Positions 808-63,040 of a stretch of DNA of 64,000 nucleotides are shown piece after piece (the stretch's first letter is position 1; every line of letters starts with the position of its first letter). The stretch is from a virus. The notes beneath the pieces are model-generated. The model saw only the letters and a list, made by a program, of their open reading frames with translations. It was not told the origin of the DNA and ran no database searches. A program made the translations under genes and the position numbers. Location: positions 32,001 through 96,000 of the IMG/VR virus record IMGVR_UViG_3300023199_000127. The stretch is one strand, 5' to 3'.

Positions 808-1656
808 ATGGCACTTCGACACCCTAGCATCCCTCGAAATCTGCCCAGGCGCGCTCATCCTAAGGGCGTGCTACAGGCCAAGCCCGGTGAAGGGGCACCC
901 GCAGCCGGCAACGCTCCTAGCGTATCCGGCGGCGGTATGTTCCGCCCCGTGCAATACAACTCGTACTCCGGTACGGACATGCTTGCAGTAATGCACATGC
1001 CTAAGACTAAGGATCGAGATCTGCTGGCAGCTGGTGCTACCGACGACGAGGTTCAGTCTTACCTCCAGAATCAGGCGACTCTAAGAACCTTCGCGGAGCT
1101 CGGTACCTTGTCCATCTCCTCGGCTAGGTCTGTACACCCTGTACGCCGGCTGGGGGAGTCTCATGTCTTTGCATACACACGTGGTGCCCGCACTGTGGCG
1201 GGAACGATGGTGTTCGCTATGTTGGACCGTGATGTGATGGCAGACTTCTACCGGGACAACCCGGATGAGATCCAGACCTCTGCCCCGTTCTTCGTGGATC
1301 AGATGCCTGAGTTCAATATCTACATTGCAGCCGCTAACGAGTACGGAGGTACTACCAGTGCAGGTCTGGTAGGTATCACTCTGACTAACTGGGGGCAGAC
1401 GCTCTCTGTGGATGACATCTATACAGAGGTCACGTATACGTTTGTGGCTAAGTTCTACCTTCCGTTCGTTCCTGACTATGCCTCCTTTAACAGGATGGTA
1501 CAGCTGCAGGACGCAGCCGAAGGCAGCATGCGTCCTGCATCTCGTATGCGCGACGTGGAGCGAGCCGGCGCCAATGGGCCCGAGGAGGATGAGCGGGCCA
1601 TCGATGAAGCTAACGACTATGCTCAGTCTCTCTTCGATAGGGCAGATGTGTTTTAA
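808..1656 (+). CDS. Tail tube paralog 2 / tube initiator-like (282 aa; true start may be later, near MFRPVQ)
   Basis: YNSYSGTDM, TRGARTVAGTMVF and DQMPEFNI..ANEYG..LSVDD align by eye with ORF 31..747. ATG 808 has no SD. Confidence 0.7.
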   Translation: MALRHPSIPRNLPRRAHPKGVLQAKPGEGAPAAGNAPSVSGGGMFRPVQYNSYSGTDMLAVMHMPKTKDRDLLAAGATDDEVQSYLQNQATLRTFAELGTLSISSARSVHPVRRLGESHVFAYTRGARTVAGTMVFAMLDRDVMADFYRDNPDEIQTSAPFFVDQMPEFNIYIAAANEYGGTTSAGLVGITLTNWGQTLSVDDIYTEVTYTFVAKFYLPFVPDYASFNRMVQLQDAAEGSMRPASRMRDVERAGANGPEEDERAIDEANDYAQSLFDRADVF

Positions 1657-2417
1657 TGCGTGACGGCAGTTATCCCACTCCCGCACAGACGTCTATCTTT
1701 GTAGACGACATCTGGATTGACGATGCATACCAGGTGAACTACGAAGAGGAGAACGCACGTATCCCGATCTATGGATACAACAGATCTGACTTTGGCATGG
1801 TCGCTGACGGAAAGGTCATCATCACGGGCAACATCGTGATCAACTTCCGTTATCCCGACTATCTGGGCCGTGCCATCAGGAACGCTCTTCGGTTTCGTAG
1901 CAATCAGAAGGAGCGTGCACAACGTAACCAGAATTTGCAGGACCCCTATGCCCCGTCGCCCCTGGCCAAGCCCAGGCTCGACCGAGCACAGATGAGAAGG
2001 TTGCTGCAAGATATTCGCACCGCCAGTCCCACGGATCGCATCAAAAAGATGGGTGAGGCTCTAGCCAAGGGCACCTTCGGCCAGGTTGCTGGCCTGTCCC
2101 GGTCCCTCTTTGGCCAGAGTGAGTCCGAGCGTATCATCGGTTCCCTACTGGATGATGCCAACCCCGTGCGAATGTCCTCCAGGGAGGGCGGTTTCAATAT
2201 CCAGCTGGTTTACGGCCATGCCTCTGGGAGAAGCGTGGTCGAAAAAATCGAAGAGTGCTATATCACTGGCCGCAGCAAGGTTCTTACCGCAGCTGCTGGT
2301 AGTGGTGGAAATTCGAGCGGGAATGTGGTCTACGAGGTCTACCCTTTTATTGCTAAGCGTGTACAATCAGACATCGTAGACCTGAGCCAGAGGGCTCAGG
2401 ACCCCACTGAGGAGTAA
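1656..2417 (+). CDS. Distant tail tube paralog 3 / baseplate-tube junction protein (253 aa)
   Basis: IPIYGYN..F..VADGKVIITGNIVINF and YEVYPFIAK match the tube fold pattern of the two upstream genes. TAATG coupling. Confidence 0.55.
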   Translation: MRDGSYPTPAQTSIFVDDIWIDDAYQVNYEEENARIPIYGYNRSDFGMVADGKVIITGNIVINFRYPDYLGRAIRNALRFRSNQKERAQRNQNLQDPYAPSPLAKPRLDRAQMRRLLQDIRTASPTDRIKKMGEALAKGTFGQVAGLSRSLFGQSESERIIGSLLDDANPVRMSSREGGFNIQLVYGHASGRSVVEKIEECYITGRSKVLTAAAGSGGNSSGNVVYEVYPFIAKRVQSDIVDLSQRAQDPTEE

Positions 2418-2419
2418 AC

Positions 2420-2917
2420 ATGAGCGACGAACAGCCCGTCAACACTGAACAGTCCCCTGTCGACCAGAGGAATCCCGAGGACAAGGTCCCGGGCCTCGAG
2501 CTGACCTGGGGCATGGTAGAAGCCATGGAGATGGATGAGGCCGAGGAGAAGAACTTCATTTCTGCAGCACAGCAGGCGAAGCAGTCCTTCCGTAGCCCTC
2601 AGTTCATCTTCCTCGCCGGCCGCCCGTACATCCATCGCACGGTGAACCGTCGCGAGATGTCCAAGCTGCGCACGGATGTGGCATTGCGTATCAACCAGCT
2701 TGCTGAGAACGCACCTGAGGGACTGGATCCCCAGCAGGCGCGCGCGCAGCTGATGAAGGACACCATGGAGGAAGCCCTGGTCGAGGCATGCAGCATCTAT
2801 CCGAAGTATGATCGAGTTTCGATCCGCGAAGAGGACGCTGGCATCATCACGAGCCTGCATGATTCCATCGTCGAAGCTTCGGGCTACAACCAGCCTGCAT
2901 CCCCCATTCGCCTGTAA
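2420..2917 (+). CDS. Tail assembly chaperone-like protein (165 aa)
   Basis: Acidic and helical, positioned after the tube genes. YIHRTVNRRE and AGIITSLHDSIVEASGY pattern. Confidence 0.6.
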   Translation: MSDEQPVNTEQSPVDQRNPEDKVPGLELTWGMVEAMEMDEAEEKNFISAAQQAKQSFRSPQFIFLAGRPYIHRTVNRREMSKLRTDVALRINQLAENAPEGLDPQQARAQLMKDTMEEALVEACSIYPKYDRVSIREEDAGIITSLHDSIVEASGYNQPASPIRL

Positions 2918-2928
2918 GGGGGAGATCG

Positions 2929-3705
2929 GTGATCCGATCTCCTTGGGACCTCCCCCGTGAAGTGAGGGAGCTGGTACCGCGACTCAAAAAGGACCATGAT
3001 GTCCTATACGTGGTGGAGCTCCAGAATGACACAGGGGAGGTCTATGCGATCTTCCGCCCAATGCGGAAGGAGGAGGTGCGTTACCTCGAAGAGAACGCAC
3101 CGTACCACGATGAGTGGTGGATGGAGGGATGGATTATCGGCCACACTTTGGTGTGGCCTGATCCACATGTTCTCGATGAATGGCTTGCTGGGACCGTTGA
3201 GTCGCTTGGTGACTCGATCATCGAGGCTTCCGGATGGTCTTCGGTCGAGGCAACCGTTGAGGGTATTCACCTCGCTAGGCAAGAGGCGACGTCACTGGAC
3301 TCTGCCATTCTCGCGTTTATCTGCAAGGCATTCCCGTCCATCCATCCGCGGGACCTCCAGAAAATGACCTTGCTCGAGACTCAGATCATGCTGGCCCGTG
3401 CAGAGATGATCCTGGGCCAGCCACTCGATCTGCAGATGTTCCTGGATCCGGAGGGGTACCAGAAGAGGCTGAAGCGCCAGCAGCGCTTCCAGCCGCCTGC
3501 CATGCTCCCGGATGATCCGGGTGCATTCGACACTCCGCCGGAGGCCATGCAGCGGCCTCGCCGGCCAACCCGCCCGCATCACAGCTATCTGCCCGATACT
3601 CCGATGGACGAGAAAGAAATGCTTTCTCCGGACGCAGCCACTAAACTTAGGAGTGGAGATTCCCTCCGAGATGAAATGGCTGCCCATCAGGACTTCCTTG
3701 GCTAA
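2929..3705 (+). CDS. Second tail assembly chaperone paralog (258 aa)
   Basis: GTG start with GGGGGAG SD. IFRPMRKEE and AGTVESLGDSIIEASGW parallel the upstream ORF. Confidence 0.55.
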   Translation: MIRSPWDLPREVRELVPRLKKDHDVLYVVELQNDTGEVYAIFRPMRKEEVRYLEENAPYHDEWWMEGWIIGHTLVWPDPHVLDEWLAGTVESLGDSIIEASGWSSVEATVEGIHLARQEATSLDSAILAFICKAFPSIHPRDLQKMTLLETQIMLARAEMILGQPLDLQMFLDPEGYQKRLKRQQRFQPPAMLPDDPGAFDTPPEAMQRPRRPTRPHHSYLPDTPMDEKEMLSPDAATKLRSGDSLRDEMAAHQDFLG

Positions 3706-6700
3706 TGGCGATTGAACGAGAGAACCTCCAGAACGAGCGCGGGTACAACCCGTATCGTGACCAGATCCTGGGCCAGCGAGGGACAGATGAGCGCCATCCC
3801 GCCGAGACTCTGCGGGAAAATGAGGCTCAGACCAAGGCTCTGGAGATCCAGAAGGCCCAGAATCCGCTACTCCAGCGGGTGGCCCAAGTCGCCTTCATCA
3901 CCTCTGGCGTCTATATGCTGGGCCGTACGAGGGCCAGAGATGCCCTCAGGAGCGCCTTGGATGCTCTGGGGTACGCTGGGAGGTCTGGGCTCCGTGTCGC
4001 CCGTGAGGGCGCCAGGAGCGCCGTCAGAGGGGCTGTAGGATCCTTCCCGGAGACCAGGAGCCTAGAGAGAGCCTTCCATGGGGTCGATGACCCGGAGATT
4101 CGCAACCTCGAGCTGATCGATACGCTGGAGGGAATACTTAACTTTAGGCGAACAGCTCTAGATGAGAATGGGTTCGCAAGAGGGCTCAGGGCTTCTCGGG
4201 CTGGTGGGCCTGCTGGATCAACCTTTGACCAGATCGCCACTGAGCATGTGGCAGCGCGGTACAACCTCGACTCTCTCGAGGATCTGCGCCATGTGACTGT
4301 CGGTGACGTCATGGAGAACGCCAATCTGCAGAGGCAGATCGGCGAACGTCAGTTCCGCACGCTCAGTGAAGCCTCGGAGCTCGGTCTCATCAATGAGCGC
4401 ACGGTCCTGCACCGTAACCGCAACGTCCGAGGGCTGTACACGACGCCTGAGGGTTTCATTCAGGACACTCGATGGGCTACCGCCGGCAACGCACTCCGGG
4501 GCCTGTACACAGCCACCAGGAACTTCTCTGTTGCTGGCTTCCGGCCCGTTGAGTTGTTCGCTGGTATGGGCAAGGCTTTCACTCAGGGTGAATTCTTCGG
4601 TGAGCTGGGCGTTGGTACTGTCATCGGTCGTGGGCGTAAGATCACGGCACAGGACGGTATTAGCTTTGCCATGGGTGGCAACATCTATCGTCAGCAGCGT
4701 GGTGGGTTCCAGCATGCCGGTAGTGGCTTCAAGCTCTTCAGCAGTAAGGAAGGTCAGTCTGCTGGTCTGATGGAGTCATTCCAGGCCATCATGGGCATGC
4801 ACCCGTTGCAGTCTCATCGTGTGGCTCAGATTAGCCAAGCGGAAGCAGACGCTCATCCGGTAAGAGATTTCTGGCAACAGCTTCAGGACCTGGTGGGTGT
4901 TGGTCCTGGGTTCAAGACCAGACCACATGTTGCTGAGACGTTCGTAGTTTATCCAATGCGCCGGCGCCAAGCCGGGCGCATGGGCGGCGGATATGTGCCT
5001 TACTCCGAAGCTGGTGGTGCGCTAGCAGGTCGACAGGGTGTCGGGTTCGGCTACGTGTCCAGACGTGATCAGAGGCGTGGCTTCTTCGAGAAGGTAGTAA
5101 ACCAGCTACAGGGTCTCAATGAGAGTGATGCTGTTGCTGCGCGTGCAGATGAATCTCGCGGATTCATGGATCGTGTTGCACGAACCATGGGCGTGGATTC
5201 TGGCGATGAGCTCTCCGCTCTTTACGGTAACCAGCAACGTGGGGCTTTCCTGAGCCCTGCAGGCATGGCCGAGTTCCGACGCAGCGGTACTATCCGCGGT
5301 CAGTCCTTGGTCGTCCAGCGTCCTACTACTGCAGCATCCTATGGAACAAGGCCCGCACGCTTCCATACTGGAGAGGTAGGCGAAGCCTCATATGGCCGCG
5401 CCACCGGTCGCACCACAGTAAGGAACTACGTTGTCCACGATGGCGGTGTGCTGGGTAATGTCAACTTGGTTGGTACCTACATGACGACGCGTCTCAACAA
5501 CCTGTTGAGCGCGACTCTGAACTACGGTATCCGTCCCGGCTCCGGCTCGTACGGCTGGGTTGGGAACATAGCCAAGATCTATGGTGGCTATCAGGCCATC
5601 AACATGGGCTTGGACTACCTGTCGTACGCCGACTATCTCATGGAGGAGTACACGGGTGTCAGTCCCAAGAAGTGGGGACTTAAGGGTTACATTGGTCTCC
5701 GCACTGGTCTCCAGAAGGCCCGCGAGGTGACAGGTGTGACCTCTGCGGCTGACTGGATTGAAGACACGATGCCGGGTTCCGTCGACAGCCCGTTGTCTCA
5801 GGCGTTGAGATTTGCTGGTCCCATGGCAGCTACGTTCCTTAGAGGACGTGGTCCAGGCCTGTCAGGGCTTGCTGCCGGTACCTTCCTTGGCTACGGTGAC
5901 ATCCAGAAGAGTTCTGAGGATGTCTATGATGAGCTGATTGGTGACAAGGATGTAGCGTATCGCCGTGGCAGGTGGTGGATGCTGGGCCGGCAGCCGTTCG
6001 GTGGAGGCCCGGTCGAATTCTATGGCAAGTCCTGGATTGCACGACAGCTGTCCGACTACCAGTACACGGACTCTCTGTATGGATCAAAGCAGGAGTATTG
6101 GCGTCATGTGAACAAGACTCCGACTCCCTCAAACCTCTTCAACTTGTTTGAGAGTCCTGAGGAATACCTGAGCCAGAAACACTACTATACGCGCCCCTAT
6201 CCGGTTGATGCAGACGGAAGTCCTGCACGTATGTCAGAAGCAATCTTCAATGAGCTCCCTGAGGAACGCGATGTGATCCCGGATGCTGGTGCGCGACTGG
6301 GCCTACAAGATGGTGGTACTCACCACGATAGACGTGCCATCGTTGGTCCGTACGGCGCTGGTGGGAAGCTTGGCTACTACGCTGATAAGATCTCTGAGCT
6401 GAGCGGCATCTACAAGTTTGCTCTGTGGGATCTGCCTGGCTTCTCCAACAACACCGATAATCGCCGGCTGGCATCGCCCGAGGCGATGGCCAGCAGGTCT
6501 CGAGAGTTCTACGACAACTCGATGGGTGGCATGCTTGGTCTCTCTGAGGCCTATCGCCGATTCCTGCCCGATGAGAAGTTCAATAAGGACTATAACCCGA
6601 TCCCCAACCAGATGCCGGATTGGCTACCTGGTATTCGGAGCTCCTTTGAGAAGGACCGGCGCTACTACATGGACTTCACTCTGGGTGATCCGTACACCAA

Positions 6701-8192
6701 GGTGAAGCAAGGTGAGGCTCGTCTACCTGGTGAAGGCTATGAGCGCATGCATCGCCTCCATTCGGGTGCCCACGGTACCTACGATGCCATGGATCGCTTT
6801 CTGATCCTTGCTGACGTCGCACCGTACTCGCAGTCGTATCAGCACTACAAGGCCATTGTGAGCTCGTGGGCTAAGGCCGGTGTGCTTGATTCCTATTGGT
6901 CAGAGAAGTTTGACACTGCTCAGAAGCAGGTCAAGGACAAGCTACAGCAGCACGATTTTACACACCGCCGTTTTACTGGACTGGTTACCGCACCCGAAGA
7001 GGAAATGGAGCGGGTAGAGCAGTGGAATCCCCTCCGACGTAGTGTTGCTGCAGCTTGGGAAGTTGCAACTCACGATGTAGTTTCGCGAGCTGCTGTGGCT
7101 GTTCCGTTTGCTGGTGGCATCCTTGGTAATAAGCTTGCTCCTACCAGATCTCCCATCGAGGCATATCAGAAGTGGGAGTTGTACGGTGAAGACTTCGCTG
7201 ATTGGCGCACACCGTACAAGAGTTTCATTCGTCCGATGGCCCATGAACTCACTGCATCAGATCCTGCCACTGCCACATTTGGTGGTGCTATGCTTGGTGT
7301 CTTTGGCGCCAACCCTCTTTCTCGTCTCGTGTTCTCTGGCGTAGGTGCAGCTCTGGCAGGGACCGCCAGCACGGCACGTGCTGTCGGTACCGGGGAGATG
7401 ACGGGTGGCTATATTCCCAGCCATCGCGAAGAGGAGCGTGAAGCCAAGGAGTATCTGGATAAGCTGAAGTACGTGAAGTATCGCCGTCTCCAGCAGATTG
7501 CTGACGCACAGGGCGACCGTACTCTGGCCTACCAGTACAAGAAGATGGCCGGCCGCACTTTGACTGGCATGGACTACTCTTTGCCTCAGGCACACTTCCA
7601 GGCTGCTGCTCGAGCAGCCATGGGTAAGCGTGAGCGTGGCTACTTTGATGCGTTCACCGAGGTGACGGATCCGGAATCCCGGAAGCGCATTCTAGAGATG
7701 GTGCCTGAGTATATGAAGCAGGTGTATGTAGCCGCGTGGTCCAAGCAGGGCGATCCCAGGATGAGGGCTGCCATGCGAGAGATGCAGCAGAGCGGAGATG
7801 CACGTGCCGCAGAATACTTCCGCAATGTGCGTAAGCCCGACAGCACGTGGGCTGGCTGGCACCCCTCGGTATCCCAGTCTGATATCGCCATCAGACTAGC
7901 AAATCAGGAGGCTTTGGATATTCATCGATTCAACCTCTGGGAGGAACAGGTCAGCGAGAGCGAAGCCAGATTCCCTGATCTGCACGTTCCGGTCGATCTG
8001 TCCGATATCCAGAGAACGCCCAGTATGCTGCGCCATGCCGCCCTGGACACCAGTAGGAAACAGTATCGGGCTGCTAGTTTCACTGGAGGCGGGTTTACTG
8101 CTGCAGGTTTGCACCCTGAGGGTATAGAATTGGATGTGATCCCTGACACTGTCACTGAAGCGTTGAGATACGCTGGGAGTCTATTGCAGTAA
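3705..8192 (+). CDS. Giant virion protein at the tape-measure position (1495 aa); possible tape measure/ejection protein
   Basis: Long ORF immediately after the chaperones. Several Gly/Ala-rich hydrophobic stretches (e.g. ATFGGAMLGVFGANPLSRLVFSGVGAALAG). TAATG coupling at both ends. Confidence 0.55.
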   Translation: MAIERENLQNERGYNPYRDQILGQRGTDERHPAETLRENEAQTKALEIQKAQNPLLQRVAQVAFITSGVYMLGRTRARDALRSALDALGYAGRSGLRVAREGARSAVRGAVGSFPETRSLERAFHGVDDPEIRNLELIDTLEGILNFRRTALDENGFARGLRASRAGGPAGSTFDQIATEHVAARYNLDSLEDLRHVTVGDVMENANLQRQIGERQFRTLSEASELGLINERTVLHRNRNVRGLYTTPEGFIQDTRWATAGNALRGLYTATRNFSVAGFRPVELFAGMGKAFTQGEFFGELGVGTVIGRGRKITAQDGISFAMGGNIYRQQRGGFQHAGSGFKLFSSKEGQSAGLMESFQAIMGMHPLQSHRVAQISQAEADAHPVRDFWQQLQDLVGVGPGFKTRPHVAETFVVYPMRRRQAGRMGGGYVPYSEAGGALAGRQGVGFGYVSRRDQRRGFFEKVVNQLQGLNESDAVAARADESRGFMDRVARTMGVDSGDELSALYGNQQRGAFLSPAGMAEFRRSGTIRGQSLVVQRPTTAASYGTRPARFHTGEVGEASYGRATGRTTVRNYVVHDGGVLGNVNLVGTYMTTRLNNLLSATLNYGIRPGSGSYGWVGNIAKIYGGYQAINMGLDYLSYADYLMEEYTGVSPKKWGLKGYIGLRTGLQKAREVTGVTSAADWIEDTMPGSVDSPLSQALRFAGPMAATFLRGRGPGLSGLAAGTFLGYGDIQKSSEDVYDELIGDKDVAYRRGRWWMLGRQPFGGGPVEFYGKSWIARQLSDYQYTDSLYGSKQEYWRHVNKTPTPSNLFNLFESPEEYLSQKHYYTRPYPVDADGSPARMSEAIFNELPEERDVIPDAGARLGLQDGGTHHDRRAIVGPYGAGGKLGYYADKISELSGIYKFALWDLPGFSNNTDNRRLASPEAMASRSREFYDNSMGGMLGLSEAYRRFLPDEKFNKDYNPIPNQMPDWLPGIRSSFEKDRRYYMDFTLGDPYTKVKQGEARLPGEGYERMHRLHSGAHGTYDAMDRFLILADVAPYSQSYQHYKAIVSSWAKAGVLDSYWSEKFDTAQKQVKDKLQQHDFTHRRFTGLVTAPEEEMERVEQWNPLRRSVAAAWEVATHDVVSRAAVAVPFAGGILGNKLAPTRSPIEAYQKWELYGEDFADWRTPYKSFIRPMAHELTASDPATATFGGAMLGVFGANPLSRLVFSGVGAALAGTASTARAVGTGEMTGGYIPSHREEEREAKEYLDKLKYVKYRRLQQIADAQGDRTLAYQYKKMAGRTLTGMDYSLPQAHFQAAARAAMGKRERGYFDAFTEVTDPESRKRILEMVPEYMKQVYVAAWSKQGDPRMRAAMREMQQSGDARAAEYFRNVRKPDSTWAGWHPSVSQSDIAIRLANQEALDIHRFNLWEEQVSESEARFPDLHVPVDLSDIQRTPSMLRHAALDTSRKQYRAASFTGGGFTAAGLHPEGIELDVIPDTVTEALRYAGSLLQ

Positions 8193-11100
8193 TGAGAGAC
8201 GCCGGCTACGGCTACTATTCCTCCAACCTTGCCAACTATCCCGGCCTCGTTGGTCTCCAGGAAGCAGTTCATTCCACCAACTATGCCCCTGTGCGTAGCA
8301 AGGGCGGTTTGAACATGCTGATTAAGAGACATCGTGAGCTCGGCATGGGCATGGGCGCAACCAAGAACGTTGTGCGTATTGTGAGGGCTCTCGAAGATGC
8401 TGGTGTCCACGATATTGGTATCTCCGTACATGCCAAGGGTGGTGTTAGCCTACGTCTACGACAGGGCCAGATTGCCATCCCGGTCTGGGATAAGGCTCGT
8501 GGTGTTGTGCATATGGGCGCAGATACCATGGCTGGCGCCATGCATCTGGTGCCCACAGGGTCCCGACTCAAGAAGATGGACGTGGCTGATGCATTCGTCC
8601 ATCGTTTCCTGAGCCGTATGCCTAGCACTAGCAAGAAGTATGGCGGTGGTGGATCCGTCAAGCTAGGTAGTGGTAACATGATACGCATTAAGGCGATGGA
8701 TCCTGTGCGTAGCGTAGACGCTCAGGTGAAGGTCCTACAGGACCTGAGCCGTACCGCAAAGACAGAATGGATGCAGACTCTGGCCACACAGAATGGTGAG
8801 AGCCAGCTATCCAAGGCCTACTATCTGCAGAACCGCATCCAGATGGATCTTACAGATATGCCCGAGCTGCAACAGCAGGCAGAGCGTATCGGTGATATGG
8901 TCGCGGCTTATCAGAAGGGTGGCGATCCCACAAAGAAGATTCTCCTGAACGACGAACTCGAGCGAAAGATCCATACGGAAATTCTCGCGTTCAAGAATCG
9001 TCTTCAGGAGGTAGCACCGGATGCGCAGCTGACTGGTATCAAGCCTGAGGCTTTCTTGCCCTTCCTGCGTGAGAATAAGACTGCCAACCGAGTGACCATG
9101 TCTACTCTGGGTCCGCAGATGATGGCCTCCATGTACGAGGAGGATGAGGTTCGTAAGAGCCTGCATCAGATGGTCCTGGCTCGAGTGATGCACCAGGACG
9201 ACATCATGCACGATCCGCAGGTGGCCATGGGCCGAGCAGTGGCTCGTGAATCACTGGGGCGCCGGCGCATCGTTCCTATCGTCACCGAGCATGGGTACAT
9301 GGATCAGATGCGCCAGATGGCAGAACTGCGTGCATTGCGTCAGGGACGCGCTGTGCGTCCTGGCGATATGTACCAGCTGACTACACGTATGCCCTTGACG
9401 GTTGGTCTGATGGATCCTGGCCAGTCGCAGATGGCATACAAGTTCCTTCGGGACCATATCGACGATTCTGGAGTTCTGCTTGGTTCTGAGACTGCACGTA
9501 CCGTGGCAGGCATGGAGTATCGGCACCAGAGCAAGGTGGGCAACGTTCAGACGTTTAAGGCCATTGGGCCTATGGCGGCCCACATCAACGCTTTGAGTGA
9601 AGACTCTCATCATCATATTGGCCTGATCGGATCGGACCTGGCTGCCGAAGGCATGCCGGTCCTCGGAACAGATGCCAGTAGGTTCGTGGGTACCCAGGGT
9701 GCGAAGTCTCTGCGTATGCGTGATCGTATCCTTTTGGGCATTGACCAGGAGACGGGTCGCCAGATCACTATGGGAGCTGGTGACCGTCTAGAGTCCATCA
9801 CTCGTAAGGGTGACCAGTACCACTTCAACATCAAGCGTGCACGTGGTGGCAGTGGTATGGGCGCCGGCTTGCTGGTGGACACACGTCGTGTAGGCGTTAC
9901 TGGCTTTATCAGTCCCGAGGTTGGGGTAGACATTGCGGGTGCTGCTGGAGACTTCGGGATGAAGTTTGGTAGCAATCGGGCCCACACATACCGTCAGTAT
10001 GTAGGTCACGTCTTCACCAGACTGGAGCGATCCGCTCTGGACCAGAAGATGCAGCGCAACGTGATGCGCCAAGTTGGCAAGGCTCTGGGAGCCGATGTCA
10101 ATTTCAAGCAGATCGGTAGCCGCGGCAGGGCATTCGTTACGCTTGCAGCCGGTATGCCTTCTATTGACCGGCTGGTCGAAGCAGCCATGTCCAATGACAG
10201 TAGTACTCTACTGAAGGACAAGGTTGTCATGGCAGCTCTGGCCGACAAGAGCATGACTGAGGCTCAGCGCCAGTCTGTAATCAATGCCTTCCGTGTCGAG
10301 AGTACGCCGATGTCCAAGGTCATGAGATCTATGGGCCATGCCGTGAGTGAGCAACAGGCTGCCGAACTAGAGCGTGCCGGTGCTCGCATGTACAAGTTTG
10401 AGGGCACCCCGGTCCAGTCTCGTCATGTGGATATGCCTTCGAAACAGATGGGCCGCTATGGCATGAACTATACGCTGGCTGATCTCAAACTGTTTGAGAC
10501 TCAGATGGCTGGCACTCAGGGTCATGTCGGTAGAGCGTATCGCACGCTCCATGACTTCCTGCGTCCTGATATCAAGACCTCCGGTGTGGGCTCAGATGCT
10601 TACCGCTTCCTCGGTCAGTTCTATGAGGGTATCGATGGTGCCCATGCAGGACTAATGAAGGCCGATACCTACTCACTGCAGCAGATCGCACAGATGAAGA
10701 ATGTGCCGATCCAGTCCACCGCACAGTATCCGGGTGGTGTGATCAAGGAGAGTGAGGTTGCCGGTTCGCTAATTAGCGGCACCGGCAACAACCTGCGTAA
10801 GGGTGGCTTCTATGTGAAGCTCAAGAAGGGCGATCATATGTCTATCGCTCTCATGGACAGGTTTGGAGCCGGCAAGGGTGGTGTGGCTGCAGTGCGGACT
10901 GATACCGTGTTCATTCCGGGCATGGAGTTCTTCCGCGGGTCAGCTGGACTTGAAGGTTTCAATGAGCTCATCATGCAGGGTGGTTCCAGGTTGGATGGCT
11001 CTGGTGGTATCGAGCGCAAGCTTTTCGGCGACTACATGAATGTAGTTAAGACACTGGAGGATTATGCATCTGGCTCTGCAGATGTGACTGCGCTACAGGA

Positions 11101-13087
11101 AAAGCTGAACCGCTTGTACCTCGGCATGTCCGAAGCTATGGTGGGCAAGGACTCTGTAATCAAGCGTTACTTTCAGCCTGACGATATGATCGGGATGACT
11201 GGGCGAACTGTCACCTCTCCCTTCTTCAACCAGAAGGCAGAGGTGGCTACGGTTGGTATCTATCGCGGCGCACTAAAGCGCGCTGCCAAGAACGGAGATC
11301 CCCGTGCTGTTCAGCTGTTGAAGCGAGCCAAGACCGGCAAGGATATCTACGGTACTGTGTTGGCTTATCCCGGTACCGATGCTGCGCACCACGCTGTGGT
11401 GCGTGTGAAGCTGATGGACAAGCAGCACATCGTTGGGAGTGACTTGGCCAAGCAGGTCGGCAATGAAGGTCTTGAGAACCTGATCTTTACCTCGCCCACG
11501 TTGCGTGCTGCCACCGAGCGAGACCTCGACTTCGACTGGAACTACTTCCGGTTCATCACAGGTGATGAAGCTTCACAGGCTGCATCAGTCGTGCATGGTG
11601 AAACAGTACGTCGACTGGACCCGCTACACGCCTTCATTAACGCTGCTCCTGGGGGTGCTACCCTACGTCAACAGGTCTCCGGCATGACACAGGCCCTCGA
11701 GGAACAGATCGGAAAGGATATCTCCGGCTTCAGTCTCGGTGAACTAGCACAGCGTGAGCAATCCCTCATTGAGGGCTCCGCTGTTCTACGCCAGAAGCTT
11801 AGCTCTCCGCTGACATACTCGTCGTTTGTCAGACAGCAGACTCTGGCTGCGTATATCGGCGAAGACCGTGGTGCCGACCTGGTGATGCGTGCACTGGGCG
11901 CAGCGGACAATAGTCCGACCGCCCAGGCTGTGACAGGCGTGAAGGAGATGCTTGCTGATCCCAAGTTCAGGGATACGTTCTCCAATGCCTGGACTGCCAC
12001 ATACTATGCCGCCCTGAAGAAGGGTGCCGCTGATGAGTCCATCGCCACTATGGTGGGTGATGTACGCAGGCTCACACAGGTTGCCTCCGAGGGCGGACGT
12101 GCTGGGCAGCGAGCACAGGGCCAGCTTGCTGAGAAGATGTTTGGGATCTTCCAGAGATCGACGCCTGGCGAGAATATCCTGATGCGTGTGCTCAATCAGT
12201 CCGGACTCACGGAGGGGGAGCACTACCACGTCGGAGCTGCCGGTGAGGCAGCCCAAGGCGCCATTGAACAGATTGGCGGCAAGGTGTATGTGACACAGCC
12301 TGGTCGTGATCTGCTGATGGAGAGATACTTCAACCCCATGGCAGAAATGCTGGGGAACCTGCAGCACATCGAAGATGCGACTAAGGAGACTGCTCTGTGG
12401 CACGCTCTTCGTCCTCTTGCTGGCCAGACTGCACCTGATTATTCACGCGCCCAGGAAACCATGGGTGTCCTCGACCTGTTGGGTCGAGGCATGAAGGATG
12501 GTGCTTCCGCGGAGCATGTTGGTGATGCCGCGCGTGATATGCAGGCCATGATGGATGCGCTTCAGGACACTGATCCCTTGCTGCACAGGGAAATGATGGA
12601 GACTGCAGCAGAGGCTGGTGGCTACCAGGCTATGGCGGATGGTGCCAGAGCAGCAGCCGGCCGCGGGAAGGATATTTTCAATCGCATCTGGAGCAGCAGG
12701 TGGGGCAAGATCGGGACGATCGGTGCCAGCGCTGTTCTGGGCCTTGAACTCTTCGGTGGCCTGGTGGGCGATGATACTCCCCCGCCTGTGATGGCCGGCA
12801 ATGGGGCTCCTATGCCTCCCACGCCTGCTCTACAGGGCGTTGCCCAGAAGCAGCATCCGCAGCCGTATATCCCTCCCAGGCCGGCACGCATCCAGCGTCC
12901 GGCCTCTATGAGGACCCATGTTTCTGCCACCATGAGGGACACAGCCCCCTCATATGGGCAGACCCGTGGGCACAATAGTTCCTTTCCCTCTCACGGACAA
13001 ATCGATTATCCTGAGAGGGACAGGGGCGAGGTTAACCCCTGGGTGATGCGGAATTATATGAGTCAGCGCATGGTGTCGAGCTACTAG
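8192..13087 (+). CDS. Single-chain two-barrel (DPBB) RNA-polymerase-like virion protein (1631 aa) with divergent active site
   Basis: Beta-like motifs: PLTVGLMD..IDDSGVLLGSETAR; HFNIKRAR..GAGLLVDTRRVGVTG..VDIAG. Beta-prime-like motifs: GMTGRTV..TVGIYRGAL..GTVLAYPGT..IFTSPTLRAATERDLDFDWN. All occur in the correct order. Aligned by eye only. Confidence 0.7.
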   Translation: MRDAGYGYYSSNLANYPGLVGLQEAVHSTNYAPVRSKGGLNMLIKRHRELGMGMGATKNVVRIVRALEDAGVHDIGISVHAKGGVSLRLRQGQIAIPVWDKARGVVHMGADTMAGAMHLVPTGSRLKKMDVADAFVHRFLSRMPSTSKKYGGGGSVKLGSGNMIRIKAMDPVRSVDAQVKVLQDLSRTAKTEWMQTLATQNGESQLSKAYYLQNRIQMDLTDMPELQQQAERIGDMVAAYQKGGDPTKKILLNDELERKIHTEILAFKNRLQEVAPDAQLTGIKPEAFLPFLRENKTANRVTMSTLGPQMMASMYEEDEVRKSLHQMVLARVMHQDDIMHDPQVAMGRAVARESLGRRRIVPIVTEHGYMDQMRQMAELRALRQGRAVRPGDMYQLTTRMPLTVGLMDPGQSQMAYKFLRDHIDDSGVLLGSETARTVAGMEYRHQSKVGNVQTFKAIGPMAAHINALSEDSHHHIGLIGSDLAAEGMPVLGTDASRFVGTQGAKSLRMRDRILLGIDQETGRQITMGAGDRLESITRKGDQYHFNIKRARGGSGMGAGLLVDTRRVGVTGFISPEVGVDIAGAAGDFGMKFGSNRAHTYRQYVGHVFTRLERSALDQKMQRNVMRQVGKALGADVNFKQIGSRGRAFVTLAAGMPSIDRLVEAAMSNDSSTLLKDKVVMAALADKSMTEAQRQSVINAFRVESTPMSKVMRSMGHAVSEQQAAELERAGARMYKFEGTPVQSRHVDMPSKQMGRYGMNYTLADLKLFETQMAGTQGHVGRAYRTLHDFLRPDIKTSGVGSDAYRFLGQFYEGIDGAHAGLMKADTYSLQQIAQMKNVPIQSTAQYPGGVIKESEVAGSLISGTGNNLRKGGFYVKLKKGDHMSIALMDRFGAGKGGVAAVRTDTVFIPGMEFFRGSAGLEGFNELIMQGGSRLDGSGGIERKLFGDYMNVVKTLEDYASGSADVTALQEKLNRLYLGMSEAMVGKDSVIKRYFQPDDMIGMTGRTVTSPFFNQKAEVATVGIYRGALKRAAKNGDPRAVQLLKRAKTGKDIYGTVLAYPGTDAAHHAVVRVKLMDKQHIVGSDLAKQVGNEGLENLIFTSPTLRAATERDLDFDWNYFRFITGDEASQAASVVHGETVRRLDPLHAFINAAPGGATLRQQVSGMTQALEEQIGKDISGFSLGELAQREQSLIEGSAVLRQKLSSPLTYSSFVRQQTLAAYIGEDRGADLVMRALGAADNSPTAQAVTGVKEMLADPKFRDTFSNAWTATYYAALKKGAADESIATMVGDVRRLTQVASEGGRAGQRAQGQLAEKMFGIFQRSTPGENILMRVLNQSGLTEGEHYHVGAAGEAAQGAIEQIGGKVYVTQPGRDLLMERYFNPMAEMLGNLQHIEDATKETALWHALRPLAGQTAPDYSRAQETMGVLDLLGRGMKDGASAEHVGDAARDMQAMMDALQDTDPLLHREMMETAAEAGGYQAMADGARAAAGRGKDIFNRIWSSRWGKIGTIGASAVLGLELFGGLVGDDTPPPVMAGNGAPMPPTPALQGVAQKQHPQPYIPPRPARIQRPASMRTHVSATMRDTAPSYGQTRGHNSSFPSHGQIDYPERDRGEVNPWVMRNYMSQRMVSSY

Positions 13088-16000
13088 ATGGCTAAGACGA
13101 TTAACGAGCGTCTAGGGTCCTTGTCTATCTTGGACCCGGAGACCGGGAATAGCATCCCGGTTAGCCTGGACCTGATCCAGCGGTATCTTCTGGATGAGGA
13201 CAACCTCATGGTCATCATTGGCAGAGCTAGAGCAGCAGCAGCTGCCAAGGAGCTCGCTGATATTGAGGCTGGCGTGGATCCCACGGCGGCTGCCAATGAG
13301 CTCAGAGCCAACCTGGACGCCCTGGATTCTGTGTCCGAAACTCTGTTCAACCGCAATCGCTCCATCAAGAATGATGAGACGCGCCGGCGTACAATCTCCG
13401 ACGCTGCCCGATCCTTTGAGGATCGTACCTATTCTTATGCCAAGCCTGCAGTCATGAGGATTGGCATGATTCCCCTTGAGGATGGTCTGGTCAAGAATGG
13501 CGCCCAGGCTATCGAAGTGGAAGACGATTACGATATTCGTCGAGTGGGATCGCTGCGCTCTGACACTGATGCAGTGGTTCGCGGCAAGTCCCAACACACG
13601 GAGATTCGGATCAGCCTGACCTTCCCTGATTTGGATTCTGTCAACACTGTGTTCCGTCCTCTACTGGCCCAGTGTCGTGCCGCGCCGGTTATCAGTATTG
13701 AGTCTGATCTCCTTGTTGATGTGCTCATTAACAAGTTCGCTACACCAGAGCTGCTGAATGCACTCCTACAGGTGGGTGCCGCCAAGACCAAGACGGATGA
13801 AGATGATCCGCTGGAGAAGCTTACCGAAGAGAGCCGTGAGAGCCTGGACAAGCTCAAGGATCTGCTCTCCTCTGGTGATTCCGCGACCATGTATGCTGTG
13901 GCACGTGCTCGACAGAAGGCCACACAGGAAGCCAGTAAGCCGAATGCTAATCCCACTGTGGAACAGGCACGTCCTTTCGACGTGCCGGATTATGGGATCG
14001 CCATTCCTGTGGCTCTCCGTGAGGTCCATGTGTCAACGAAGAAAAGCGGCACCCATGCCCTGGATGCCACCTTTATCTTTGTGCGCATCAACGAGTCTGC
14101 CTTTATGCAGTCTGGTCTTCGCTGGCGTGACTCCAACGGTTGGCCCACCTATGACGTGACCAAGTGCGATACTCTGTATCGGTACTTCCATAAGACCTAC
14201 CTGACCCCGTCAGACCAGAAGGATTCTCAAACCTATATGGCTCCCATCCCCAAGTCGGATGCGGAAGTCCAGGCCCCCATGATCCTGCGATGGGAGAACT
14301 ACCATACGGGGGAAGAGAAGAGTATTGATCTAAGCGACTTTGAGTGCGTGATCCATCAAATGAATGTTGGGTGGTCGAACAAGCTTTGCATGATGCCTCT
14401 CATCGGCCAGCACAATCCAGCTGTGCAGTATCTCGGTACTTCCAACGGAGTGGCCAAGGTACAGATCATTACCAAGGATAGACAGCTGGTGCGCACCCTG
14501 CACCAGCTGAAGGATGAACAAGACGAGATCTCTCGCCGGCACAGTGCACTGGATCGTGATGATCGGATTATCATCGAGAATGGTGTCCTAAACATGACTG
14601 GCATGCGTGAGTTTGTTATCCAGTCCTTGACCACAACGACTGATCCGCGCAGTCCTGAGCTTATCTACTTGAACATCACATTTGTGGAGTCCAAGTACAC
14701 CCTTCGTGAGCGTGAACAGGTTACGCTCTTCCAGGATCACTACGACAAGGATCATCTGAAGGCGTTGTGGAGGTTCATGTTCAAGACCATGAACGAGGCG
14801 ATGGACAAGACACTACGACGTCAGGAATGGAGCCAGACCGAGCGAGAGGTCATGTCCACTCTCTTTGGTAGCTCATTCCTTTACAGGAATGTGACTGGCG
14901 CAGCGGTGGACTTCTCCGCTGTGCGTGCCGACATTGAAAAGGGCACTGGATTTTTCGGCACAAGGCTGGAGAGCGGTAGGACCCCTGGTGAAGCCTACAG
15001 GCTCCAGGACTCCTTCCGGAAGGCAACAGCTCCCGATAACGGAATGCCTGGTATTCTTAACAACTCTGTGATGGCTGCAGCTATCTCCCACTTCATCACC
15101 TCTGGTGGAACCGACTCCAGTCGGATCCGCTGGTTGAAGAATAGAGAAAGAGAAGCAGAGAAGTCGGTCGAGGATCCTGCCAGTTGGTTGAGCTGGGTGA
15201 ATTTCACCAGGAACAACCAGGTCACTCGTGTGAAGAACGAGCTCCAGGAACAGGATCTGACCGTCATCAAATACATCTTTGACTGGCCGACCCAGGCAGA
15301 TCTTAATGGAGCTCGCGCCACCATGCTGGCCTGGCTTGACGAGCTGCAGACCCACGAGGTGGGTCCGGAGGTGGACAAGGGCTCCAGCATGCTGTTCCGC
15401 GTGTTCATGCTGGCCCGAGATCATCTACGGCTTGATGCCCCCGCATTCAAGCAGCAGTTCTGGGACTCTGTTCTAGAGGTGCTCTCCAACCGTCAGTCTG
15501 ATGCTGCTGTGCAGGGTAAGAAGTGGCTCTCTGAGGATCTCGCCCAGGCCCAGTCTCTTCTTATTGGTGTGCTTGCCAGTGGAGTGGCTGATAGGTGGGA
15601 GGGCTTTGACCAGAGCCGATTCTTGAGCCAGAAGAAGTTCAAGGCACTGGACGCCAACGGGCCGGACGAGCCGTCTGACAACTACCCGGACATGTATCTT
15701 CCGACCTATGCAGATCTGTTCAGTAACCCGCCCCTCGGGTTGGTACTTGGTCTGCCTATCCCGGTTGTACAACAGGTAGATGCCAGTCAGGCAAAGTATG
15801 CCCCGCTGCGGGGACAGAGTCGCAAGGGTGATCCGCAGGCTCTCTGGATCAACTTTGCTCCGCGATACAAGGATCTTGGTAAGCGCCCTCCGTTCGAGGT
15901 TCGGGCTGCCTTTGGAAAGCCGGAAGAGGCCAGCAATGCTATTGCTCGTACGATTAATGATCGCGTCGAGCCTGGGTTCTTCTACTGGAAGGGTTCCTGG

Positions 16001-19000
16001 AAGGATGAGCTGGGAGCGGTAGAGAAGTACCGCAATCAGATGGAGCAGATCCGCGATGAGGCCAAGAGCCACATCATCCAACTCGATCACAGTATCAGTG
16101 CCGACGGTGCTTTGCTCGAAGGATCGCTTCGTAACATGATCGACTACCTGATGGGAGAGGAGTACCCGAGTGCCAACTCGGGTACTGTGCAAGTCCTGAG
16201 TAACCGACAGCAGGCCAAGGATCTGATCCGTAAGCTGGATCGAGTCAATGCTGAGGTACCGGTTATCAACCTGATTGACTCGGAGGGTCGATTGGTTGCA
16301 TATCTGCGCCATGCTCCCCAGTCGAATGATCGTGGCAGGACGCGTCACTTCGAGCTTGTCTCCTTTAAGGGTGGTCCTCTGAAAATCCGCAACCCCTTCA
16401 ATAACTCTGTGTTGGACCACGATGAGATGTTGAAGCCGGGTCAGATCCAGGAAGTGGTTAACCAGATCAAGGATGACCACTTCTCCATGCAGCGTGCGTA
16501 CCCCACGTATCGCGTATACGCTATTGAGGAGGATCGGGAACAGCTCATCTACTCCGATGACTTCTATGGTGTGAATTGTGTTTCCAGCATTGAAATCCAC
16601 CACTCCAAGCGCAATGCATCTTTGGCAATCCTGAGGATTACGAACACCAGCGGTCAGTTTGAGAACGATCAATTCCTACCGTTCGCAGAAGAGGGTAACT
16701 ACGAGGTCAATGCTGACGACGAAGGCGAACGCTTCTTTAGGCGTTTCCGGTTCCGCTCTGGGACGCTGATCCAGATCCGCATGGGCTATACCGGCAAGCC
16801 CACCGAACTGGACATTGTCTTCTCTGGTCGTGTGGTCGAGGTACAGCATGGTCCTGTAATTCAACTGATCTGTCAGGGTCACCGTACCGATCTCCTCCAG
16901 GAGATCGAGTACGCCAATACCAATAAGGATCCCTACCGCATCCTGGAGGATTGTTTCAAGAAGATTGGCAATGCTCCCAGCCTGGGTCGTACGGTGAAGA
17001 TGGGCCATATTAACCGCACGATGATCAGAGACTTCCTTGGCGAAAGAGCGGCTAAGCAAGTGACCTGGTGGGGTAAATTGTGGCGTCACGAGGTCAACTC
17101 CCACTTGAGGAATGTCTATGTGCACTCCAACTCTCAGGTGGTTGGTGGCTGGTTTGATTTCATTGATCGTGGGATTACCGACCAGTATCTCGAGGGTATT
17201 GGGCAGAAGGTGGTGCGCTTCTTCAATGATGTTCCGGGTGTGGAGCTGTTGATCCCGGATGCTGCCTTCCCTGCATGGGTGGTACCGCTGCAGCCGTTCT
17301 GGGACATGATTCAGGAAATGGTTCGCCATCGTCCTGGCAATATCGCGTACGTGGTGCCGTGGGAGCAGGATGGGACTCTTTTCTTTGGGAAGCCCACAAC
17401 TCCTTATCTTGCAGAGAACCCTCCGACTGCAGAACGACGTGCATACAACCGCCTGGATCGGGTTGTGCGCAAACTGTCTCTGCAGGACATCTCTGCCATT
17501 ATCCTTGAGAGATTTCTCACCTCACGCTTCTATAAGAACCGTCCTCTGTTGATGGATGCACTCAGCAATCGTACGAAGCTTCGTGAGAAGAATGCCAGTG
17601 TCAATAGCTTGGCAGAGCTGGATCGTCTTACGTTCAGCTGCTATGGGCATATGACTTCGTTCTCGTCCCCGGGGCTCCGGGATGAGTCACTGCGTGGGAA
17701 TAATAGACTGCACTCTCTCGACTTCACCTCTGAGTGGGACTATCTCCTTAAGTGGAATCCCGGTCTGGTGAAGCTGGCCACCTCCTTCTTCTTCGGCATG
17801 GAGTGGCAGCCGGTCTGGCCCAATGGGTTTGAGGGGGACTGGAAGCTTTGTTTCCGTGGGCTCATGCCGCCCTTGCAGGCCGGCGGTAGCAAGGAGCTCT
17901 CTCGTTCTGCAGAAGACTGGAAGAGCCAGTGGGTAGACTCGGATAACTCCTCACTGAATGCGATGCGTGTACCGACCTCATTCCTCGATACGAAGGCTCA
18001 AGCTAACGCCATGATTCGAGTATTGGAGAAGCAGCAGATTGAGCTACAGGCTGCCCGAGACTCAATTAATGAGATGCGTAGTCAGGGTCGTATCCCTGCA
18101 AGGATCCTGGACCAGCTTGAAGAGCAGGTCCAGGAGCGCAGAGAGGTATTCGAGCAGTTTGGTGTGCTGACTGCTGAACAGCGTGCCGCACAGATCGCCC
18201 GAGTTAGAGATGCTTTGGGTGGCTTCTCGCTACCTGGTGCATCTGGTCGCCCTGACCACTATGAGGAGCTGGGGACGATCGTGGAGTTCCGTGCTAACCA
18301 TTATCGGATGTTCATCCATGCCCTGGCTAACTTCGTCAGGGACCAGATTGGCGGAGAGACTACTCTGGGCAGACAGATCCGCAAGGAGGCTGTTACTAAG
18401 GCCATGGATGATCATCGCAGCTACATGCTGCCGCCGGGGTGGAAGCAGTTCCGCGACTATCACGTTCTCACTTCTGAGAACGATATCATCGAGAACTCCA
18501 TTACTGCCTCCATGCAGCAGATGCACAACGTTGTGCTCATCCGCCATCCGGAGGCTGGCGTCGAGCTGGTTTCTGGAGATGAGCTACAGGAGGACTCGGA
18601 GGTCGAGGATCTAAATAACACCGATGGCCAGCTGGCTCGTAAGCGTGTCATGTTCCAGGAAGACACCACTTGGAATAGCTTCCCAAAGGATGGGGGACTT
18701 CCCTTCCGTCCTGCTCTCGGCAAGGAGCACCGCAAGCTTCTGGTGAAGGTGGAGAACAACGCCTTTGATCAGGAGTCGGCTTTCCGTTGCCTGATCTCTA
18801 ATATGCAGCAGGCGCTGCAGCCCATGTACCGTGGCTACATCACCTTCATTGGCCGCCACATGAAGCCGCACGATGTCATCCATATCAAGGATGACATCTC
18901 CGATATGATTGGTCCGGTGGAAGTGGATGAGATTACACACCACTTCACTCCTGAAGGTGGCTGGGTATCCTCAGTGGTGCCGCATGCTCTGGTCCATGCA

Positions 19001-20571: not shown

Positions 20572-21005
20572 TGTCTGTCTTTCTTCTCCAGGATATCGAG
20601 ACTGATGACGCCGGCGATGTGCAGGTCCAGAACGGGGACCTGAAGCTGGCGACTCCTCGTCGTACAGCCATCCAGATGCTGGATTGGCTGTTGAAGACTG
20701 ATTTGGCTGGGTACGATGGAGCTCCCCTGGTTGCAGCCAACTTCGGTGAGTTCCTTGGAGCACCCAACATCTCTCGCACCCACAATCTCATGAAGAAGAA
20801 CGCCTACGAGGGATTGAAGCAGCAGGGTGTGTTCCCGCCTGGTGATGTGGTCATTCACATCGAGCCCGTTGATGTAGACACTGCGGCTGTGTTCGCCCAG
20901 TGCTACAGCCAGTTTGCTTTCGAGGGTGAGCCCATCACCCTTGCGTATGAGTTCCCCTACCCGGATGGTACTATCACGGCTGTGGATCTCTCGGGGGTTA
21001 GCTAA
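20571..21005 (+). CDS. gp25-like baseplate wedge/sheath initiator (144 aa)
   Basis: GDLKLA..IQMLDWLLKT..G..P..ANFGEFLGAPN pattern, size, and position directly before baseplate J. Confidence 0.75.
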   Translation: MSVFLLQDIETDDAGDVQVQNGDLKLATPRRTAIQMLDWLLKTDLAGYDGAPLVAANFGEFLGAPNISRTHNLMKKNAYEGLKQQGVFPPGDVVIHIEPVDVDTAAVFAQCYSQFAFEGEPITLAYEFPYPDGTITAVDLSGVS

Positions 21006-22153
21006 TGGTTGTCAAGACGAAGACTGTTCATGAGCTGAACGAAGTCGCCTTCCAGCGACTCGTTCAGGATACGGATATCACAGCAATCAATCCCGGCTCC
21101 ATTGCCCGGGCTCTGGTTGAGTCTGTCAACCTAGGTATCCAGGATCTGTTCGAGGGTATTGAGCTGGCAGTCAGCCAGACGTTCATCAGTCAGGCCCAAG
21201 GCTTCTACTTGGACCTCATTGGTGAGCTCTTTAACGTGAGCCGGCGCACTGACGTGCGGGCGGCTACGTTCTCGGATGATCAGCAGATCCGCTTCTACGT
21301 TCGAGATGGTGCTCTAGGCGATAGGCTGGTCCACCCCACAGATGCCACCAAGGGTAGGATCCCGAACGGTACCCAGATCCAGAACTCCGACGGTTCTATC
21401 GTCTGGACCGTCAACGGCAACCACGACTTTGATCGAACTGCCAACCAGGTATATGTGGGTGCCCAGGCCAGCACTGCTGGTGTCCAGGGCAATGTGGGCG
21501 CCAAGACGCTGACGAGCCACAATCTGGGAGTGGACGGCGTTCTGGTCGAGAATGTCGAGGGGATCCAGACGGGCGTGGATGTGGAGCCTGACGAGCTCTT
21601 CCGGGTCAGGATTCAGAACTTCGCTCAGAGCTCACAGGGCTCCAATGAGACGGCTGTTCGCCTCGCGGTGCTCCAGGCACCGGGAGTGGCCAACGTGCTC
21701 CTCACGCCCAACGTGGCCGGCTCTGGTAGCTTCCAGGTCCTGGTCATCCCTGAGGGCAATCGTGTGTCCACCAATACGCTGCTCGAGGTCTCCTCCGCTA
21801 TGAGGGCTGCAGCTGCTTACGGTATCACCGTACTGGTGACGGAGCCGGAGTATCTACCCTTCTCCATCACCATCAAGCTGTCCTATCAAGGCACAGACGC
21901 GGGCTTCGCGTCTGTGCAGGAGTTGGTTGAGGCTGAGGTACGGGACTATTTTGCCAACCTCAACCCTGGAGACCCGCTGATTATCAACCGTTTGCGCCAG
22001 CTAGTGCTGGGTGCAGACCAGAGCATCGAGGACCTCAAGATCCTCGAGCTGTGCATCGATGGCCGTCCCCAGCTGGTGCAGAACTACCAGCTGGCCAACG
22101 ATGAGCTGTTCATTCCCGACGCAAATCTAGCCGACCCCATCAGGATTGTGTAA
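21005..22153 (+). CDS. Baseplate J-like wedge protein (382 aa)
   Basis: NPGSIARALVE, AQGFYLDLIGELFNVSR and G.DVEPDELFRVRI..GSNETAVRLAVLQAPGVANV are characteristic Baseplate_J motifs. Confidence 0.9.
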   Translation: MVVKTKTVHELNEVAFQRLVQDTDITAINPGSIARALVESVNLGIQDLFEGIELAVSQTFISQAQGFYLDLIGELFNVSRRTDVRAATFSDDQQIRFYVRDGALGDRLVHPTDATKGRIPNGTQIQNSDGSIVWTVNGNHDFDRTANQVYVGAQASTAGVQGNVGAKTLTSHNLGVDGVLVENVEGIQTGVDVEPDELFRVRIQNFAQSSQGSNETAVRLAVLQAPGVANVLLTPNVAGSGSFQVLVIPEGNRVSTNTLLEVSSAMRAAAAYGITVLVTEPEYLPFSITIKLSYQGTDAGFASVQELVEAEVRDYFANLNPGDPLIINRLRQLVLGADQSIEDLKILELCIDGRPQLVQNYQLANDELFIPDANLADPIRIV

Positions 22154-61036: not shown

Positions 61037-61054
61037 GCTTACTCCGTATAGGCG

Positions 61055-63030: not shown

Positions 63031-63040
63031 GCTACTTACC

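Follow-up and report, generated by a model that had tools for sequence, protein, structure and literature searches.

A diverged one-chain relative of cellular RNA polymerase encoded in the contractile-tail module of a large phage

The 1631-residue phage protein P0001 is a very diverged one-chain relative of cellular RNA polymerase (RNAP). The reading we prefer, with a probability of about 0.7, is that P0001 is a virion RNAP attached to the tail through its C-terminal module: it would be stored in an extended form, ejected on contraction and refolded, and would then transcribe the first-entering genes. The gene lies in a window of 64,000 nt, the whole stretch analysed here, which comprises bases 32001–96000 of the 180.8-kb contig IMGVR_UViG_3300023199_000127 (181 kb in rounded form for the phage). 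The first 30 bases of the contig are repeated 151 bases before its end, so the contig is probably a complete circular phage genome.

The open reading frame (ORF) of P0001 is real, and all motifs quoted in an earlier sequence-only reading of this DNA lie where that reading placed them, including GMTGRTV at aa 1001 and DLDFD at aa 1111–1115 (nt 11522–11536). A fusion created by assembly artefact was rejected as the origin of the gene, because four independent full-length homologs each consist of one ORF. Searches of Pfam and PHROG and a single-sequence search of the PDB gave no useful match for P0001, tblastn against cultured phages gave no match, pattern scans using P0001 or its clade alignment recovered no loci, and a search of the ESM Atlas gave no usable match. 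One match to CsrA was discarded as tag-like and due to chance. The features of P0001 and the surrounding genes are collected in Table 1.

Table 1. Features of P0001 and of the neighbouring tail genes, in window coordinates
Feature	Position (nt)	Strand	Basis
Tail sheath gene, end (contig 30603–32024)	1–24	+	phrog_16991 tail sheath, E 1.3e-33
Three tail-tube-type genes, gp140/141/142 slots	31–747, 808–1656, 1656–2417	+	tblastn; third by position only
Two small genes, gp143/gp144 tail-chaperone slots	2420–3705	+	synteny only
1495-aa gp145 homolog, alternative tape-measure candidate	3705–8192	+	BLASTP to gp145, E 7e-25
P0001, single-chain RNAP-like protein in 0305phi8-36 gp146 slot	8192–13087	+	1631-aa ORF, homologs, profile
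N-terminal region, aa 1–385	8192–9346	+	conserved within clade; low pLDDT where modelled
Putative beta-like region, aa 400–770, barrel unconfirmed	9389–10501	+	conservation, HHalign to slot proteins
Beta-prime N-terminal clamp core and switch region, aa 800–997, including G985-K986	10589–11182	+	profile, VIA
Catalytic double-psi beta-barrel (DPBB-A), aa 998–1146	11183–11629	+	VIA, Foldseek
A1058-Y1059-P1060, beta-prime RxP motif with R425-equivalent changed to Ala	11363–11371	+	alignment
R1110 and triad D1111/D1113/D1115, fourth position Phe not Gly	11519–11536	+	clade conservation, register
Putative bridge helix (~aa 1190–1225) and trigger-loop region (~aa 1262–1280)	11759–12031	+	alignment by eye, inferred
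C-terminal slot module, aa 1449–1631	12536–13084	+	profile, E 1.6e-8 for P0001 and 5.8e-12 for gp146; hydropathy
2204-aa gp147-like baseplate hub	13088–19702	+	phrog_20474, E 1e-34; BLASTP to gp147, E 5e-12
Baseplate wedge (J-like)	21005–22153	+	phrog_6, E 3.7e-40

The beta-prime-like half

The sequence-only reading had proposed a series of beta-prime-like motifs that includes an Asp triad. The pattern DxDxD is expected 0.31 times by chance in a protein of the composition of P0001, and the motif therefore needed outside support. This support comes from invariance in homologs, from a leave-out profile in register, and from the double-psi beta-barrel (DPBB) fold, which together make the triad significant. 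Specifically, P0001 has five close homologs at 25–39% identity, four of them full-length and syntenic and one partial, and residues D1111, D1113, D1115, R1110, Y1059, P1060 and H1066 are invariant in P0001 and all five. K1276 and K1277 in the putative trigger-loop region are invariant as well. A profile was made from 57 other proteins of the same gene slot, with the P0001 clade left out; P0001 scores E 2e-17 against it with its triad in register, and none of the shuffled decoys used as control scored. Furthermore, a 54-sequence family profile matches bacterial beta-prime (E 5.8e-8) over a stretch that starts at the clamp coiled-coil and includes the catalytic loop, its positions 481–705 aligning with beta-prime 270–539, and the triad of P0001 is in register with the DxDGD of the lineage and with that of beta-prime.

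In the predicted models, aa 998–1146 form a DPBB that carries the DxDxD triad in its loop, as the sequence-only reading expected of a polymerase. In VIA comparisons, this segment aligns with the largest-subunit barrel of Pol I/II with Z 10.0–10.8 and 2.5–2.8 Å root-mean-square deviation (rmsd) over 108–114 residues, and the best 50 Foldseek matches of the predicted models are all RNAP structures, in particular chains of the beta-prime/largest-subunit type. The ranges matched by VIA begin at residues 11–33 of RNAP largest subunits, and aa 807–997 match the clamp part at the N-terminus of these subunits but are placed at a different angle, giving an overall rmsd of ~14 Å. P23-45 gp96 and QDE-1 reach only Z 5.4 and 5.8, respectively, against the barrel of P0001, and the similarity to QDE-1 is restricted to the barrel level, whereas subunits of multisubunit enzymes reach Z ~10. 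Fold similarity over the whole region, with 980 columns and E 1.7e-8, is found to a viral model and an ME3 protein. On the combined grounds of sequence profiles and predicted models, we regard the beta-prime half of P0001, comprising clamp core, DPBB-A and Asp triad, as confirmed.

Tail module, slot orthologs and a second polymerase

Judged from the genes flanking P0001, the phage is a 0305phi8-36-like myophage. Sheath, tube, hub and wedge genes surround the ORF, which bears out the contractile-tail position claimed for it. By tblastn, the first two tube genes match the tail tube of KLEB27-3 and ORF140 of 0305phi8-36, for which the record notes the same role; PHROG 9206 calls the tube genes in 31–1656 'major head protein', a family label that looks wrong beside the tail-tube note of the 0305phi8-36 record. 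The hub assignment of gp147 comes from PMC2147016. The product of gp145 is a virion protein in 0305phi8-36, and the stop codon of its homolog overlaps the start of P0001 by 1 nt, while the gap between P0001 and the next gene is 0 nt. P0001 is part of a late structural operon.

The C-terminal module of P0001 consists of a Gly/Ala-rich hydrophobic helix (aa 1507–1525, ~125 aa from the end), a Pro-rich linker and a terminal helix. It is common to RNAP-less slot proteins and to 0305phi8-36 gp146, whose GenBank note records its detection in the virion by mass spectrometry, and this homology establishes orthology rather than shared position alone. The module is a probable virion or baseplate anchor.

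With gp145 as anchor, 120 loci were fetched, and in every locus seen the slot gene is flanked by the tube and chaperone genes on one side and by the hub gene on the other. The DxDxD triad is present in most of ~60 slot orthologs, 370–590 aa from the C-terminus. Triad-bearing orthologs of cultured phages are ME3 gp36 (YP_009595868), WH1 gp095 (BCO16148), Edson 0920 and KLEB27-3 gp034 (UNY39803), all annotated merely as hypothetical or structural. Complete orthologs without the triad are 0305phi8-36 gp146, that of MTATph1, and those of loci L028, L073, L074, L076, L078, L085 and L089. The RNAP is thus dispensable in part of the lineage, which argues that it is cargo on a conserved virion anchor and not an essential part. 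The slot proteins of the seven numbered loci measure 540–1100 aa and keep the C-terminal module; that of L089 still matches the RNAP profile weakly and in part, and is remnant-like. In Moorella phage MTATph1 (L008:15513-22869), a transposase apparently splits the slot gene, and the C-terminal module has a 313-aa ORF to itself. The Paenibacillus sp. EC2-1 'plasmid pla' (L138, 206 kb), probably a phage or phage-plasmid, has this tail module too, and its slot protein of 2611 aa is RNAP-less.

The genome of P0001 also encodes a separate RNAP related to the slot family, as is the case for gp96-type systems. This split non-virion RNAP (contig 150923–154700, minus strand; L013:10924-14701) comprises a 590-aa beta-like and a 561-aa beta-prime-like gene, with Pfam matches to Rpb2_6 at 150923–152695 (E 9e-22) and to Rpb1_2 at 153015–154700 (E 1e-4). 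A DCDGD motif occurs in this RNAP, and its beta-prime is also found by the slot profile, at E ~1e-6 to 1e-8. A sigma-70-like factor with Pfam regions r1.2, r2 and r4 is encoded upstream of the packaging genes (contig 5453–6205; L014:454-1206). Virion RNAPs of gp96 type go with a repeated promoter motif ahead of the pre-early genes; for the phage of P0001, an exact k-mer scan yielded no dispersed motif that stood out.

Several other features of the genome were recorded. A 905-aa ORF (contig 7551–10268; L014:2552-5269) combines a motif of DEDD-exonuclease type with a hydrophobic segment and a motif resembling PD-(D/E)XK. In the slot proteins of KLEB27-3, 0305phi8-36 and others, DEDD-like motifs form an N-terminal fusion; in the genome of P0001, the module is a gene of its own. 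A putative large terminase with an intein-like insertion was recognised by eye (contig 12937–16122; L014:7938-11123). Four tandem 22-bp repeats, possible origin iterons, lie between listed ORFs (contig ~175228–175318; L016:15229-15319). From window position 59648 to 64000 and beyond, there is a strand switch with lower GC near 60 kb, and the minus-strand run past ~60 kb contains glycosyltransferase-like genes by eye.

The sequence-only reading had assigned P0001 to the tape-measure position. P0001 does occupy the slot that Hardies et al. gave to the tape measure, gp146, mainly on length (PMC2147016), but the canonical tape-measure position, immediately behind the chaperones, is taken by the gp145 homolog. 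The lengths of slot protein and gp145 are correlated (rho 0.65, n=48, uncorrected for kinship). An alternative to tail storage is that P0001 travels in the head, as an ejection protein in the style of crAss gp66 or N4. It would then be an active virion RNAP whose gene lies among tail genes although the product is no part of the tail lumen or the ruler, and gp145 would be the true tape measure. The position of gp145 behind the chaperone pair and the length-based naming of gp146 speak for this alternative, as do the clamp elements that P0001 retains, unlike the flat gp96 (PMC10770324), and the fact that just ~340 aa follow the putative trigger loop. We nevertheless consider it unlikely, given that the C-terminal module is retained even in RNAP-less slot proteins, that the gene keeps its place before the hub in every locus seen, and that the two lengths co-vary.

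Active-site substitutions and the beta-like region

In the P0001 clade, the equivalent of beta-prime R425 appears to have moved from the RxP motif to just before the first Asp of the triad. We aligned 64 sequences, comprising 63 slot proteins and the non-virion beta-prime of the same genome. The canonical RxP Arg is present in 52 of the 64, never together with an Arg before the first Asp, and is absent from the remaining 12, P0001 included, where an Arg always stands just before the first Asp. The mutual exclusivity has no exception either way and suggests selection on function; it overstates the number of independent events, since the swap requires two changes on the tree, of which strong branches force only one, and may represent one or two events rather than twelve. 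The simplest reading of the alignment is compensation, in which R1110 would replace the lost R425-equivalent. The non-Gly residue at the fourth position of the Asp motif is compatible with activity, because crAss gp66 is active with a non-Gly residue at this position, where it is tied to a self-inhibited conformation (10.1101/2020.03.07.982082).

Beta-like motifs had likewise been proposed, at aa 401–583. They are present and partly conserved, but their resemblance to beta stays at chance level, with E 0.078 for the best HHalign of the region and E 0.059 for a reversed control; HHalign and iterative HMM searches of aa 390–800 for a beta barrel gave scores at control level. In other slot proteins, the corresponding region is homologous to P0001 aa 400–770 (HHalign probability 74, E 2.7e-5). 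The features of this region are D425, a flap-like insertion, R565/R566, G605-H606, R744 and K751, among which D425, R565 and R566 are invariant in five full-length homologs, and R744 and K751 are invariant as well. D425 is a candidate equivalent of beta D814. For the P0001 clade and the Firmicutes-phage group alike, the best non-significant alignments to beta fall in the register drawn by eye in the sequence-only reading; in that register, the equivalents of the catalytic beta residues K1065 and K1073 are replaced, and the Arg pair R565/R566 lies beside the second.

The two AlphaFold models of P0001 (pTM 0.31 and 0.52) bear on the expected pair of DPBBs in part: both barrels had been looked for, DPBB-A with its triad is present, and a confident second barrel was not obtained, aa 400–770 being of low confidence in both models. 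There is no beta-subunit chain among the listed fold matches, which is not evidence of absence, because a single domain fills the lists. The proposal of a single-chain two-barrel RNAP thus stands as regards the beta-prime half and the single ORF, while the second barrel is assigned by motif order and is unconfirmed; aa 400–770 plausibly supply it. The N-terminal aa 1–385 are possibly beta lobe-like.

The substitutions raise the question of whether the enzyme of this clade is catalytically eroded or repurposed and no transcriptase, either serving as a structural protein of the tail or surviving as a relic that binds metal or nucleic acid and perhaps helps to draw DNA in. Such a relic would account for the loss of the R425-equivalent, of the Gly of DxDGD and of the beta lysines, and it would fit the existence of RNAP-less orthologs and the partial remnant in L089. 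It is made quite unlikely by the invariance, at 25–39% identity, of the triad, R1110, Y1059-P1060, H1066, D425 and R565/R566, by the presence of the new Arg exactly where the canonical one is lost, and by the activity of crAss gp66 without the Gly (10.1101/2020.03.07.982082). That P0001 is a beta-prime-like half only, whose activity would need a partner such as the separate beta-like subunit of the phage, would explain why aa 390–800 have no significant profile match to beta, but is very improbable in view of the order and spacing of the beta-like motifs, of the conservation of D425, and of the register of the top alignments to beta, which, though non-significant, is the expected one for both groups. 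To our knowledge, every two-barrel polymerase requires both barrels.

Proposed function and relation to known phage polymerases

A virion RNAP, our preferred reading, is favoured by the late structural operon, the gp146-homologous C-terminal module and the second, split RNAP in the genome; against a two-barrel RNAP stand the unconfirmed second barrel, the substituted beta lysines and R425-equivalent, and the triad-less orthologs. As a virion RNAP, P0001 would draw its second barrel from aa 400–770 and would be tied into the tail or baseplate by the C-terminal module. A folded RNAP is too large for a tail lumen of ~4 nm, so the chain would be kept extended inside the tail tube. Contraction would then eject P0001, with the hydrophobic helix 1507–1525 crossing or anchoring in the membrane, and the protein would refold at the inner membrane face and transcribe whichever genes enter first, which would include those of the split non-virion RNAP, in the manner of P23-45. 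At the active site, R1110 would stand in for the lost R425-equivalent and R565/R566 for the beta lysines. A bolder proposal, which we hold only tentatively and rate as rather doubtful, is that a lineage of large myophages uses a clamp-bearing, multisubunit-derived RNAP as an unfolded tail ruler chain that is injected and refolded, and that the P0001 clade has moved the ribose-sensing Arg into the Asp loop and exchanged the beta lysines for an Arg pair.

The arrangement had been taken as undescribed. A virion two-barrel RNAP fused to a tape-measure protein, gp96, is known from the Thermus siphovirus P23-45 (PMC10770324; PDB 8h2m), gp96-type virion RNAPs also occur in P74-26, G20c and TSP4, and gp64 is a non-virion RNAP related to gp96 (PMC10770324). 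A tape-measure-linked RNAP is therefore not unprecedented, but our literature search found no paper on a contractile-tail version. ME3, WH1 and KLEB27-3 are absent from the supplementary files of PMC10770324, and the only enzyme that Iyer et al. name for 0305phi8-36 is the YonO-like one (PMC7824862).

By analogy, the best reading is that P0001 works like P23-45 gp96 but stands outside that family. In both, a single chain carries the RNAP ahead of a C-terminal part that is tail-related and contains a hydrophobic segment, the genome encodes a further, non-virion RNAP related to the first, and relatives without the RNAP domain exist. The phage of P0001 has a contractile tail with sheath and baseplate wedge, in contrast to the long non-contractile siphoviral tail of P23-45, and its non-virion RNAP, unlike that of P23-45, has two subunits. 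P0001 is far shorter, with 1631 aa and ~340 aa after the RNAP core against 5002 aa in gp96; it retains the beta-prime clamp core and switch (beta-prime 270–539), whereas gp96 is clamp-less and flat; and it is closer to multisubunit RNAPs (VIA Z ~10) than to gp96 (5.4). The motif of P0001 is DLDFD with a relocated Arg, that of gp96 DFDGD, and the C-terminal module of P0001 is homologous to gp146, itself just a hypothetical tape measure (PMC2147016).

Other phage polymerases resemble P0001 in part. Like crAss phi14:2 gp66 (10.1101/2020.03.07.982082), P0001 is a single chain with a non-Gly fourth position in its Asp motif, and virion delivery is inferred for P0001; gp66 is a QDE-1-like podovirus enzyme with a cleft-blocking domain, whereas P0001 best matches multisubunit beta-prime/Rpb1 and is encoded in a contractile tail operon. 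Like 0305phi8-36 gp146 (PMC2147016; YP_001429637), P0001 lies between gp145 and the gp147 hub and has the homologous C-terminal module, but gp146 has a DEDD-exonuclease-like motif in place of DxDxD, and the YonO-like RNAP of 0305phi8-36 is gp99, encoded elsewhere. The slot proteins of ME3, WH1, Edson and KLEB27-3 share with P0001 the slot, the C-terminal module and DxDxD in the same barrel context, and keep the canonical RxP Arg, unlike P0001; the three of them that come from Bacillus phages, also unlike P0001, keep DxDGD and have long N-terminal extensions. P0001 would belong with the YonO-like and phiKZ/AR9 RNAPs to the phage two-barrel class, the AR9 non-virion beta-prime being among its top fold matches, but YonO is a non-virion enzyme, the virion RNAPs of phiKZ type are multisubunit, and neither is encoded in the gp146 slot.

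P0001 would extend tail-linked virion RNAPs from one Thermus siphovirus group to a wide contractile-tailed lineage, by a route that apparently is independent of that of P23-45 and starts from a clamp-bearing enzyme akin to the non-virion RNAP of the same phage. The cultured phages ME3, WH1, Edson and KLEB27-3 carry orthologs, so that a place in the virion, early transcription resistant to rifampicin and a role as ruler are testable. The Arg swap, if true, would mean that nature has found a second way to make a contact that is among the most conserved in RNAP.
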